Source: Candidatus Staskawiczbacteria bacterium RIFCSPHIGHO2_02_FULL_42_22
GTDB taxonomy: Bacteria; Patescibacteriota; Minisyncoccia; Minisyncoccales; Staskawiczbacteraceae
Reading direction: 5' to 3'
Assembly: GCA_001820175.1 (NCBI GenBank)
Contig: MHOT01000018.1
Location: forward strand, 15,401 to 73,703
Length of the DNA: 58,303 bases
Below are positions 36,485-56,956 of the stretch, piece after piece (position 1 is the first letter of the stretch; every line of letters begins with the position of its first letter). The notes under the pieces were generated by a model that was given only the letters and a program-made list of their open reading frames with translations, made no database searches and was not told where the DNA came from. A program made the translations under genes and the position numbers.

Positions 36485-36679
36485 ATGGAACCGGAAACCC
36501 AAAAAATTATATCATTGCTTGAAGATCTAGTACAATCACAAAAGGCCAACCAGGCCGCTATGGTAGAAATGACTCGCAAGGATAAAAAATATAAAAAAGT
36601 TATCGGAGGATTGCTTATTGTTGTGTTAGTGTCTTTTTTGTATGCAATCGTGATATCATTGTTGTATTATTATAAATAG
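36485..36679 (+). CDS. Small C-terminally anchored hypothetical protein
   Basis: 64 aa with one TM; stop codon TAG coincides with the first bases of a family A element. Confidence 0.6.
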   Translation: MEPETQKIISLLEDLVQSQKANQAAMVEMTRKDKKYKKVIGGLLIVVLVSFLYAIVISLLYYYK

Positions 36680-36954
36680 ACCTGTTGCGTATTAAGGATT
36701 GTCGCGAAAATTACAGATTTTGAGCTGGAAATTTGATAGAATTTTTCGGCTTGCCCTCTGGGCCCGGAGATGGGGAAATTTGTTGCTACAAATTTACCCA
36801 CATCTTGACCGAAAAATTATAATTTGCTAAGCGAGAGAGAAAAAGAAGAATAGCAATTATTCTTTTTCGAACGAGCGACAAATTATACTAGGTATAGCAA
36901 ATTTCTGGCCAAAATATGCAATTTGCAGCAAATCCTTAATACGCAACAGGTCTA
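36677..36954. mobile_element. Family A element (278 bp), opposite orientation to the 16009 copy
   Basis: Same TIRs and internal modules. Confidence 0.9.
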
Positions 36955-38452: not shown

Positions 38453-38761
38453 GTTTTCTATTCAAAACCAAAAAATCAGCGCACGCTGATTTTTGGTTTT
38501 AGGAAATCGATGAGGTTTGATTTTTCAGGGATTTGTGGTAATATACAGTTAATTTGAAATTTTAAATTTATCCCGATGGCAAGCCATCGAGGACCCACGA
38601 TAAAATCGAGGCAATTTGAAATCAATTTAAATTTGTTAAATATTTAAAAACGTCAACATTTTGCGTTGTCGAAATATTGACACTTACTTATTGAAAATTG
38701 AAAATTGAAAATTGAAAATTCAATTTTAAACTAAGTTTAAAATTGCTATGGACTTTCAACC

Positions 38762-39032
38762 AGTTCCTCATTCATATAATTTTAAATCCCTAGTAGCATT
38801 CCCATGGCTTGCCTTCTAGGCGCGAGGAGCGGCGCGTACCCTCTGTGGTACGAGAGCGACGAGCAACAACGAAGACAGGCCATGGGAATGCTACCCATTG
38901 GGAACCCAAAAATTACTCCATTTTCTTCTTTGCTCCTCCTCAAGGTGGCGCAAGGCCACCCTTCGTTGTCGCGCATCGAAACTGAAGCAATTTTTAGGTT
39001 CTAGGGGTTTAAAATTATATGAATGAGGAACT
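38762..39032 (+). promoter_or_regulatory. Structured dnaG leader closed by a 32-bp inverted repeat overlapping the dnaG start codon
   Basis: 38762-38793 is the reverse complement of 39001-39032 (one T.G); inner 16-bp IR at 38793-38808/38879-38894. Confidence 0.6.
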
Positions 39033-40833
39033 TGAAGAAATTAAAAACAAGCTCAATGTGGTTGATGTGGTTGGCAGCTATGTTAAATTAACCAAAACAG
39101 GAGCTAATTTGCGGGGCATTTGCCCTTTTCATTCAGAGAAAAGTCCATCGTTTTTTGTAAATCCCGCCCGCCAACTATGGCATTGTTTTGGGTGCGGATC
39201 CGGTTCATCTATCTTTGACTTTGTCATGAAAATTGAAGGCGTCGAATTTGGGGATGCCCTTCGAATCCTGGCCGCCAAAGCGGGGGTTCAGTTAAAACGG
39301 GAAAATGTTCAGTTGCGCACCGAGCGCCAGCGTTTGTACGAAATTTGCGAACTGGCCTGTAAGTTTTTTGAAAAGCAATTAGAGGGGAGCGCCATGGGCA
39401 AGGAAGCCGAGGCCTATTTATTAAAACGCGGCATTAGTAAAGAAAGCATCAAAAAGTGGCGCCTGGGCTATTCTCCTGATACCTGGAATGGCTTGACGGA
39501 TTTTTTGATTGGTAAAGGATATGCTCGCCAGGAAATTGTAAAAACAGGACTTGCCATTGAAAAAGAGAACAATAAAAATGATTCCTATGACCGGTTTCGC
39601 GGCCGAATCATGTTTCCGGTGTTTGGCTTAAATTCTGAAGTGGTGGGTTTTGGCGGCAGGGTGTTTAAGCAGGCCGATAATAAAGAAATTGCAAAATATA
39701 TCAATACGCCCCAGACCTTGCTATACGATAAAAGCGGTATTCTCTACGGACTTAATTATGCAAAACTTGCCGTGCGGAAACAAAATCAGTGTGTGGTGGT
39801 AGAAGGATACACCGATGTGATTATGTGCCATCAGGCCGGATATGAAAATACGGTAGCCGCTTCAGGAACCGCATTGACGGCGCACCATTTAACTATTTTA
39901 AAACGGTATTCTGAAAATTTAGTGTTGGCCTTTGATATGGATATTGCCGGGGATTCGGCCACCAAACGGGGAATCAACGGGGCCCAGGAACAGGGTTTTA
40001 ATATTAAGATTATTGAAAGCTATGGTTTTGGCAATGAAAAGTCCGACCCGGCCGATATTATTTTAAAAGATCCAAAGCAGTGGGAAGAATCCCTTGCAAA
40101 AGCAAAATCAATCATGGATTACTATATTGATTCCGCTTTTTTGCATTTTGATGCCAAGACCCCTGAAGGGAAAAAAGAAATCGGTAATGTAGTTTTGCCG
40201 GCTATCAAGCGCCTGGCAAACAAAATAGAACAATCATTTTGGGTGCAAACATTATCACAAAAATTAGGCGTAAAAGAGGAAGCCATTTTAGAGGAATTAT
40301 CTAAAATAAAGTTCCAGCAAAGGGCGTCAGAAGTTGCGCCGCCGGCCCCAATATCTGGTTTTGAAAATAAGGAAATATTAGGCCAGGAGGGCCGAAAAAA
40401 GTTAATTGAAGAAAAAATAATTTCTCTCATTTTAAAAAATCCAGGATACATAACATTAATACCGGAAGCGGACTACGGAATATTTTCCCATAAAATCCGG
40501 CAGTTTATTGAAGAGATAAAAAAAGTGGTCCAGCTTCAAAAGCCGGCCGAGGAAGGCCGGTTAAAAGAAGATTTTAAAATTATTTTTAATAGCGAAGAAT
40601 TGAATGTTGAGTTAAAAAATTTTTTGGCGGCGCTAGCTTTAAGCGCTGAACTGCAATACCAGGAAGATGGCCAAGAAGAAGTGCTTTTGTGCCTGCTTCA
40701 ATTAAAAAATATAGCATTAAAAAATAACCTTAACGTTGTTTCGGACGATATTAAAAAAGCGGAGGGGGAAAGCGATTCAAAAAAAGTAGCTGAATTAATT
40801 GCCAAATTTAATCAATTAACTAAAGAGTTATAA
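39019..40833 (+). CDS. dnaG: DNA primase
   Basis: CPFHSEKSPSF..WHCFGC zinc finger, DRFRGRIMFP, KYINTP, VVVEGYTDVI, FDMDIAG. Confidence 0.98.
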   Translation: MNEELEEIKNKLNVVDVVGSYVKLTKTGANLRGICPFHSEKSPSFFVNPARQLWHCFGCGSGSSIFDFVMKIEGVEFGDALRILAAKAGVQLKRENVQLRTERQRLYEICELACKFFEKQLEGSAMGKEAEAYLLKRGISKESIKKWRLGYSPDTWNGLTDFLIGKGYARQEIVKTGLAIEKENNKNDSYDRFRGRIMFPVFGLNSEVVGFGGRVFKQADNKEIAKYINTPQTLLYDKSGILYGLNYAKLAVRKQNQCVVVEGYTDVIMCHQAGYENTVAASGTALTAHHLTILKRYSENLVLAFDMDIAGDSATKRGINGAQEQGFNIKIIESYGFGNEKSDPADIILKDPKQWEESLAKAKSIMDYYIDSAFLHFDAKTPEGKKEIGNVVLPAIKRLANKIEQSFWVQTLSQKLGVKEEAILEELSKIKFQQRASEVAPPAPISGFENKEILGQEGRKKLIEEKIISLILKNPGYITLIPEADYGIFSHKIRQFIEEIKKVVQLQKPAEEGRLKEDFKIIFNSEELNVELKNFLAALALSAELQYQEDGQEEVLLCLLQLKNIALKNNLNVVSDDIKKAEGESDSKKVAELIAKFNQLTKEL

Positions 40834-40867
40834 TTTACCTTCACATCAAACAGGTGGGGTAATATAA

Positions 40868-41144
40868 TAGACCTGTTGCGTATTAAGGATTGTCGCGAAA
40901 ATTGAAGATTTTGGATCAGAAATTTGATAGAATTTTTCGGCTTGCCCATAGGCCCGGAGATGGGGAAATTTGTTGCTACAAATTTGCCCACATCTTGACC
41001 GAAAAATTATAATGTGCTAAGCGAGAGAGAAAAAGAAGAATATCAATTATTCTTTTTCGAACGAGCGACACATTATACTAGGTATAGCAAATTTCTGGCC
41101 AAAATATGCAATTTGCAGTAAATCCTTAATACGCAACAGGTCTA
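40868..41144. mobile_element. Family A element (277 bp) between dnaG and rpoD
   Basis: TIRs and modules as above. Confidence 0.9.
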
Positions 41145-56716: not shown

Positions 56717-56956
56717 CAGTGCCTCACTAATATAATTTTGAACCCTGGTTCAAAATTATATTAGGGCGCTTCCGTAAATACCTTCCCCAAAATTAGGTTC
56801 AATGCGCCCTGAATATCAGTACTGTAATTGAGCAAAATCTTGAGCCCTACCTTGGGTAGGGCGAAGGACTTTGCGATTGAGTAGTGCTGATAGTCAGGGA
56901 TGCGGTGGGCGTAAGATGGGGAAGCTATTTACGGAAGCGCCCTTAGTGAGGCACTG
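56717..56956 (+). ncRNA. Candidate rod-shaped structured RNA
   Basis: Nested inverted repeats with several G.U-compatible pairs on the + strand and a central unpaired bubble. Confidence 0.5.

Follow-up and report, generated by a model that had tools for sequence, protein, structure and literature searches.

Introduction

MITEs and the Rickettsia palindromic elements (RPEs) sit in open reading frames and alter the expression of neighboring genes (review PMC10969869). In the Correia/NEMIS elements of Neisseria and in other MITEs, such as RUP and ERIC, the units are small, non-coding, and present in multiple copies, and their terminal inverted repeats form long stems in transcripts; the TIR stems of the Correia elements are cleaved by RNase III (review PMC10969869). 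The element described here, situated at the start of the primase gene dnaG in Candidatus Staskawiczbacteria bacterium RIFCSPHIGHO2_02_FULL_42_22, is similar in its build, and also in its gene-adjacent and intragenic copies, its frequent CTAG or TA ends, and its possible effect on the adjacent gene. It shares with MITEs a non-coding body of 271 nt, 32-bp terminal arms in every full copy, and dispersed copies with presence/absence differences, but termini common with an autonomous IS are absent from the host assembly (G000). There are further significant differences between this element and the Correia elements and other MITEs. The element is approximately 270 nt long with a conserved three-way-junction core; its termini differ completely between lineages, yet remain paired and constant in length; no matching IS or transposase and no clean TA duplication were found for it; and it spans many families of one CPR order instead of one genus.

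RPEs are also palindromic repeats of reduced genomes lying inside protein genes, sometimes in frame, as is one copy of the present element in a GT2 gene. However, most copies of the element contain stops in all frames and encode no conserved peptide, and the dnaG copy, whose 271 nt break the frame and reach a TAG after 19 codons, would be bypassed by a new start and not translated. The intervening sequences (IVS) of 23S rRNA resemble the element in the long closing stem and the structured insert, and two copies (L038 and L053, not the dnaG copy) are situated in 23S rRNA in the sense orientation. Compared with IVS, the family also occupies mRNAs and intergenic DNA in both orientations, and its 23S site is, to our knowledge, not among the classical IVS sites at helices 9, 25, and 45. 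Group I and group II introns are characterized by a match to their core models and by an always-sense orientation, and the element shows neither. In the case of REP/REPIN sequences with their RAYT (Y1/HUH) enzymes, the likeness lies in an end structure conserved in shape rather than in sequence, two inverted hairpin modules, TAG heads, the absence of a clean target duplication, and Y1_Tnp genes that are commoner in element-bearing genomes. In contrast to REPINs, the element is much larger, twelve element-bearing genomes, including G000, are without Y1_Tnp, and no copy was seen flanking such a gene. Leader-ORF coupling, as in the erm-type leader peptides, is similar in that translation of a short upstream ORF would melt a helix sequestering the start; at dnaG, however, the arrangement would be an accident of insertion, with an orphaned native start and no known signal input.

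The dnaG element belongs to a MITE/RPE/IVS-like family that is widespread in Patescibacteria and has no Rfam match.

Results

Structure of the element at the dnaG locus

The window is the whole stretch of DNA that was analyzed, 58,303 nt of contig MHOT01000018.1 (assembly GCA_001820175.1, positions 15,401 to 73,703, forward strand). The features around the start of dnaG are listed below in the coordinates of the window.

38677..38705, + strand: promoter-like site (TTGACA, 17 nt, GAAAAT) upstream of the native dnaG start; consensus scan only
38748..38761, + strand: orphaned native dnaG start ATG GAC TTT CAA CC (M D F Q and 2 nt of codon 5), from comparison with 22 congeners
38748..38819, + strand: remnant ORF of 23 codons, MDFQPVPHSYNFKSLVAFPWLAF followed by a stop, which begins at the native start, crosses the entire left arm, and reaches P2; translation
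38762..39032, + strand: whole element, 271 nt; covariance model R1, positions 1-270 of 270, 260.9 bits
38762..38793, + strand: P1 left arm (5' strand of the closing stem); inverted-repeat search and folding
38793..38894, + strand: P2 domain, with a 24-bp stem (38793-38816 / 38871-38894)
38814-38831, 38834-38854, and 38857-38876, + strand: conserved block A, variable hairpin, and conserved block B, respectively, within P2
38894..38904, + strand: junction segment CCCATTGGGAA, with conserved CCC..GGGAA
38905..39000, + strand: P3 domain, with stem 38905-38919 / 38984-39000
38920-38943, 38944-38960, and 38961-38982, + strand: block C, hairpin GGTGGC-GCAA-GGCCACC, and block D, respectively, within P3
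39001..39032, + strand: P1 right arm, containing an in-frame stop TAA (39010-39012), the present dnaG ATG (39019-39021), and the codons N, E, E, and L (positions 1-2)
39019..40833, + strand: dnaG (primase) ORF as it stands today, 604 aa, MNEEL followed by EEIKNKL...; ORF list

The element is closed by a 32-bp helix between 38762-38793 and 39001-39032. This pairing, which the preliminary description had proposed as a means of sequestering the dnaG start codon, is borne out, with one U.G (T.G) position and the remainder perfect. A repeat search of the window finds it within an inverted repeat whose 40-nt arms are 90% complementary (38754-38793 / 39001-39040). The two 32-mers as a duplex reach -47.0 kcal/mol, and the folding energy of the 296-nt region is -131.4 kcal/mol, compared with a mean of -75.7 for 200 shuffled sequences (z = -11.4), none of which folds as well. 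The dnaG ATG at 39019 and the codons AAT GAG GAA do reside in the right arm, as had been noted, and the ATG together with the 18 nt upstream of it is wholly within the helix. Translation of the minus strand likewise returns the mirror ORF MNEELVESP and its stop. The inner inverted repeat starting with GTAG is present, but it is longer than the 16 bp first given, with 24-nt arms (38793-38816 / 38871-38894) that are 92% complementary. The 207 nt enclosed by the closing stem have a G+C content of 50-60%, compared with 23-28% in the flanking spacer.

A HIT gene with a terminator-like hairpin after it is located upstream of dnaG, as is the promoter-like TTGACA-17-GAAAAT at 38677-38705. No promoter-like site was found inside the element on the + strand (consensus scan only).

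The probability that the locus is a fold-back chimera of assembly, a source of error already considered in the preliminary description, is vanishingly small. Palindromic repeats do break assembly elsewhere, and three contig ends of G000 lie inside copies of the element. However, both junctions are reproduced without a single difference in independent Logan contigs of four metagenome runs (38697-38842 and 38813-39308), and full-length copies of the same architecture also occur in complete single-contig genomes, e.g., G237 and G280. In the four metagenome runs examined, the insertion is fixed throughout; empty-site or excision alleles were looked for in the reads of these runs and none were found.

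Insertion in codon 5 of dnaG and the probable present start

Among the congeners with a dnaG match, the gene is uninterrupted in 22 of 22 and starts with M(A)DSQ[I/V/L]EEIKNKL, encoded as ATG/GTG GAY TCN CAA ATN/TTA GAR GAR in all 22. In the window, ATG GAC TTT CAA CC is followed directly by the element and then by T GAA GAA ATT AAA; comparison of this remnant with the congener starts places the element within ancestral codon 5. Deletion of 38762-39032 (271 nt) restores the frame as MDFQP-EEIKNKL. The earlier suggestion of an inverted duplication created by an element inserted at the gene start stands as regards the insertion, which both the empty sites and the repeat family bear out, but no gene sequence was duplicated: the repeat is the element's own terminal stem.

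From EEIKNKL onward, DnaG is 79-93% identical to its congeners, and this segment is therefore still translated. Reading upstream in frame from EEIKNKL gives L E E N M, then Y N, and then the stop at 39010-39012, which leaves ATG 39019 as the sole in-frame start before the conserved EEIKNKL, barring RNA removal. The primase is thus probably translated from ATG 39019 in the right arm of the element, and the new N-terminus MNEEL is equal in length (five residues) to MDSQI. The codons for MNEE are derived from the element, because sibling copies end with ATT/GTT/GTG-AnT-GAG-GCA-CT. Two changes distinguish the dnaG right arm from its siblings, a T>G making the ATG and a C>A at GAA, and both are compensated in the left arm; these changes were either already in the donor copy, or the pairing was selected in place. 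Meanwhile, the remnant start is altered at two of its 4 2/3 codons (S3F, and codon 5 from ATT/TTA to CC-), and MDSQ is invariant in the 22 relatives. Judged from the sequence, this drift fits relaxed constraint and would argue against a primase that still includes the remnant.

The preliminary description had also interpreted the stem as a cis translational switch on primase, for which the same pairing with covariation was to be sought in related dnaG leaders. This interpretation is not supported: the element and the pairing are found in the upstream regions of none of the 22 congeners (0/22), and the same unit lies at unrelated sites in G000 and in 46 of 401 genomes. The 271-nt element at dnaG is not a dedicated, conserved dnaG device.

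Distribution and covariation of the repeat family

The 271-letter unit at dnaG is one copy of a repeat family that is widespread in ultra-small bacteria (Patescibacteria). The 821-kb assembly G000 contains at least eight copies. Full copies are located at C16:32710-32980 (87% identical) and C2:5972-6242 (76%), with more distant full copies at C18:78676-78948, C13:37461-37731, and C13:8345-8615. In the alignment of these copies, four sequence blocks are almost invariant, and the stems vary yet stay paired. Both C13 copies possess an entirely different 32-bp closing stem, which is still perfectly paired.

BLAST, followed by covariance model R1 built from 16 copies, was used to search 401 sampled genomes of the order, with at most four matches scored per genome. 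The 46 genomes with R1 matches belong to 33 of the 245 genera of the order, and the length of most family copies is 265-280 nt. In an alignment of 74 copies to the model, 96.5% of the 4144 pair cells are standard pairs, changes on both sides are seen in 44 of 56 pairs, and the covariation score is 0.59, compared with 0.18 for shuffled and below 0.10 for slid partners; this alignment was fitted to the model, which favors structure. In a MAFFT alignment, for which no structure model was used, 38 of the 56 pairs are already compensated. The counts of G.U versus A.C pairs, taken as a strand indicator, are approximately 98 and 76 when three near-invariant G.U columns are set aside, and do not discriminate between the strands.

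The family architecture is a three-way junction, in which a 31-33-bp closing stem (P1) is joined by the two arms P2 and P3. In each of these arms, the stem contains a large internal loop that is conserved, and the hairpin at the tip varies. Block C is approximately the reverse complement of block B, and block D that of block A; hence, P2 and P3 look like inverted copies of one module. An invariant TAG heads each module, at the P1/P2 and the P3/P1 junctions.

No relevant Rfam match was obtained, either for the whole window at the gathering threshold or for 801 nt at E <= 10, which rules out a known riboswitch, leader, intron, ribozyme, 6S, tmRNA, or HEARO-type RNA. A published description of the family was looked for and none was found. 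A coding function of the element was likewise rejected: 96 of 100 copies, including the dnaG copy, contain stops in all six frames, and only four are stop-free in any frame.

Copies in protein genes, rRNA, and intergenic DNA

Approximately 100 copies were inspected together with their flanks. Most are intergenic and lie in either orientation relative to their neighbors. One copy is situated between rplC and rplD, two genomes carry copies after trxB (one per orientation), one copy lies within the loop of a terminator hairpin (L050), and copies often adjoin tRNA genes (e.g., L087, L107, and L136). Others are nested with further palindromic elements (C12:73489-73664 and L119). At C12:73461-73807 of G000, a second, unrelated palindromic element of approximately 175 nt (TAGAACAAACATTATCACTTTGCACT...AGTGCAAAGTGATAATGTTTGTTCTA) is located in the P2 stem of an element copy, with TA on both sides.

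Once the element is removed, one continuous Pfam domain again spans the junction in the rarA (MgsA_C), Nudix, alpha/beta hydrolase, and HIT genes. The copies in genes and rRNA other than that in dnaG are as follows.

rarA, G000, sense: MgsA_C restored on deletion
Nudix box, G019, sense: domain restored on deletion
alpha/beta hydrolase, GxSxG elbow (L046), G237, antisense: domain restored on deletion
HIT gene (L095), G362, antisense: domain restored on deletion
zincin gene end, G258, sense: junction at the very end of the Zincin_1 match, less secure
GT2 gene, codon 5 (L012; G020:C14:8017-8246 region), G020, sense
23S rRNA (L038), G034:C2:120508-120778, sense: approximately 220 nt from the 23S 5' end
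23S rRNA (L053), G036:C8:34784-35061, sense: approximately 220 nt from the 23S 5' end

The two genomes with 23S copies represent two genera of the same family. Copies in genes or rRNA are counted as five or six sense and two antisense, a ratio still compatible, to some extent, with an RNA process confined to one strand.

With its 273 nt, the copy in the GT2 gene contains no stop and stays in the host frame (MKQP-[91 aa]-VSVIIPSYN), so that MKQP is predicted to be followed by 91 inserted residues in the GT2 protein of G020. In the HIT gene, the copy is likewise free of stops in the frame of the downstream half. Since only 4 of 100 copies are stop-free overall, the stop-free, in-frame GT2 and HIT copies point to selection on translation through the element.

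In G000 (C2:5734-7138), the element splits rarA/mgsA into ORFs of 302 aa and 83 aa, the downstream one of which starts at a GTG in the element arm. The intact rarA of G014 reads GINLAH, and that of G000 reads GIN-P[element]-AH. Loss of rarA is tolerated, as only 2 of 26 congeners possess the gene. Around the right end, the codon 14 nt from the terminus is ATG in dnaG, GTG in rarA, and GTG in the Nudix gene, which are the three stop-bearing sense intragenic copies. Elsewhere in the arm lineage, the same codon is GTT/ATT/ATA/TTT/GCC in 12 of 13 copies and a start codon in 1 of 13, an enrichment (Fisher p = 0.007) drawn from a small sample, post hoc, and within this arm lineage only. The G of the rarA GTG faces an A in the other arm, forming an unpaired A.G mismatch, which indicates that the change to GTG came after the insertion.

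Termini, target sites, and mobilizing enzyme

The closing stems are hypervariable in sequence between lineages and constant in length (31-33 bp), and such termini are unlike the classical TIRs recognized by transposases. Outside the AGTGCC lineage of G000, most arms copy tRNA positions G53-N72 (GTTCGAATCCCGCACTCC) paired with the complement; in most lineages, the closing stem is a copy of the T-loop, T-stem, and acceptor 3' strand of tRNA (GTTCGAATCCnGCnnnCC) paired with its complement. A tRNA origin of the arms was rejected for G000, in which no arm matches any of its 34 tRNA genes. The arm sequence occurs in G000 only at copies of the element and at one solo hairpin. At 56718-56775 of the window, an arm-only ("empty") hairpin of the same lineage, AGTGCCTCACTAATATAATTTTGAACCC-TG-GTTCAAAATTATATTAGGGCGCT, stands without the 207-nt core, and a similar empty hairpin lies beside the filled copy L019 in G024.

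The junction dinucleotides are CA...TT in dnaG and CA...TA in rarA, and neither shows a clean duplication against the orthologous empty sites. Several copies (C16, C18b, L031, and L084) are flanked by TA...TA or CTAG. The left junctions of dnaG and rarA both read CAACC(C) with the A of the element following, and the orthologues do not read so. No exact rule for the junctions or for a duplication emerged from the copies compared.

In G000, an arm-sequence search and the transposase profile Y1_Tnp revealed no IS with matching termini that would supply a transposase. Y1_Tnp (PF01797) has no match in G000 or in 11 other element-bearing genomes, and no copy of the element was seen flanking a Y1_Tnp gene, the nearest being 1.9 kb away in G139. 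Across the sample, Y1_Tnp genes are present in 34 of 46 element-bearing genomes and in 169 of 355 others (48%), with p = 0.0009 uncorrected for phylogeny. A Y1/RAYT partner was set aside, as it is a statistical enrichment only and is absent from G000. Y1_Tnp-type genes occur in 203 of the 401 genomes, and many of them are ORFs of 230-260 aa that match only the C-terminal two-thirds of the profile.

It is conceivable, albeit unlikely, that the family represents a class of mobile elements recognized by shape. A host enzyme or one of the Y1/HUH type would bind the junction core, in single-stranded DNA or in RNA, and cleave a set distance away from it, where the 31-33-bp stem has its base; the sequence of that stem would be arbitrary and often similar to a tRNA minihelix. 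Insertion, and perhaps also excision from DNA or RNA, could then proceed without a footprint, even where the target is an essential gene or 23S rRNA, and the dnaG copy could be lost from part of the transcripts or genomes.

Discussion

The element belongs to a dispersed family, it lies in codon 5 of dnaG, and the native reading frame of the gene is lost. These features are probably explained by the insertion of a non-coding, MITE-like palindromic element of 271 nt, with a new start drawn from its right arm and the burial of that start in the stem as a side effect. A mobile hairpin, with its three-way-junction core and 32-bp closing stem, would have inserted into codon 5 and severed dnaG from its native start, ATG 38748. 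The primase start would then have moved to ATG 39019 in the right arm, replacing the first five residues MDSQI with MNEEL. Transcription from the upstream promoter-like site would generate an mRNA containing the orphaned start, the whole element, and dnaG, and the closing stem would form in such an mRNA, burying ATG 39019. Pairing characterizes the family wherever a copy lies; hence, its presence at dnaG does not in itself demonstrate local regulatory selection. On this reading, the burial of the ATG is incidental to the insertion rather than a primase switch shaped by evolution.

Certain features sit uneasily with an insertion followed by start-codon replacement. An essential gene whose sole start is buried in a helix of -47 kcal/mol uncomfortably counts against it, and the MITE-like reading has against it the absence of a clean target-site duplication, the absence of a partner transposase, and the hypervariable termini. 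A possible way out lies in the remnant ORF. Ribosomes loading at the orphaned native start could translate its 23 codons through the left arm and thereby melt the stem, which would expose ATG 39019 and couple the translation of dnaG to the leader ORF. When the remnant-ORF region is held open in folding, the right arm retains weak local structure only. The opening of the stem by such translation is put forward tentatively, as a minority prospect.

In the alternative of exaptation, the element would be mobile in origin and its stem now kept as a translational throttle on primase, with possible roles in keeping primase low or in tying it to translation capacity. The dnaG arms are still perfectly paired, including the compensated changes at the ATG and at GAA, the ATG and its preceding 18 nt are fully enclosed in the helix, the native translation start and the 23-codon ORF across the left arm are preserved, and the insertion is fixed in the four metagenome runs examined. 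However, this is a single species-level event absent from the 22 congeners, pairing is seen at every family locus, intergenic ones included, with no need for local selection, and the compensated changes may predate the insertion, which together make exaptation rather improbable. A long duplex in the leader also raises the prospect of processing as in Correia/NEMIS, since a perfect duplex of 32 bp is a textbook substrate of RNase III; cleavage of the stem would yield a dnaG mRNA with a short leader or a destabilized mRNA. The RNase III gene is present in 22 of 26 congeners, but the profiles PF14622 and PF00636 find no such gene in the G000 assembly (95% complete), and RNase III was rejected as the processor on this ground. 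Moreover, cleavage in the right arm would cut away or shorten the sequence around the ATG, so that processing of this kind has an equally low probability.

Removal at the RNA level would dispense with the new start altogether. The element would be similar to an rRNA IVS or a new type of intron, cut at the base of the stem, and the exons rejoined to give MDFQP-EEIKNKL from the native start. An intron was at one time the main reading, prompted by the restored frame and by the first four intragenic cases being sense. A precise 271-nt deletion does restore the frame in dnaG and in rarA, sense copies lie inside the 23S rRNA of two genera, the intragenic copies are mostly sense, the core is strongly conserved and structured with a closing stem constant at 31-33 bp, and many arms mimic the tRNA acceptor/T minihelix, which processing enzymes could recognize. 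Restoration of the frame, however, is expected of any insertion without duplication and is therefore no argument for splicing. The element has no group I, group II, or other Rfam match even at E < 10, and two intragenic copies are antisense (the hydrolase copy L046 and the HIT copy L095). The open frame maintained in the GT2 copy would serve no purpose under splicing; in interrupted genes, the arms have gained start codons or are enriched in them; and the codons of the dnaG remnant have drifted from the otherwise invariant MDSQ. The antisense copies, the in-frame GT2 copy, the arm start codons, and the remnant drift led to the intron being dropped, and we know of no mRNA ligation pathway in bacteria. 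RNA-level removal is accordingly very improbable.

With an insertion and a start-codon replacement at dnaG, an essential replication gene would have survived a hit in its fifth codon by borrowing the start codon of the invader. A dnaG start enclosed in a 32-bp helix behind an orphaned leader ORF would constitute a natural test of translation against structure in a minimal cell. The family of approximately 270 nt extends over dozens of Patescibacteria genera, in intergenic DNA, ORFs, terminator loops, and 23S rRNA, and it raises the concrete question of what mobilizes the element. Knowledge of the family prevents mis-annotation in CPR genomes, namely split genes, false starts, and "riboswitch-like" leaders.

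Other repeats around dnaG

A stutter of the heptamer TTGAAAA occupies 38687-38727, just upstream of the native dnaG start. The word depth of this array in metagenome contigs is approximately 68,000, compared with approximately 25 for its flanks, and the array is therefore common to very many loci or organisms. Other word stutters occupy the same place upstream of dnaG in congeners. In addition, a repeat of approximately 150-200 nt brackets the region, with one copy at 36670-36881, upstream of a 286-aa gene, and the other at 40812-41071, after dnaG. The two copies appear as near-identical spurious ORFs (MGKFVATNFPISGP..., MSLVRKRII.ILLFLSRLA.YNFSVKMW.NL), and this bracketing repeat probably belongs to the other hairpin families of the window.
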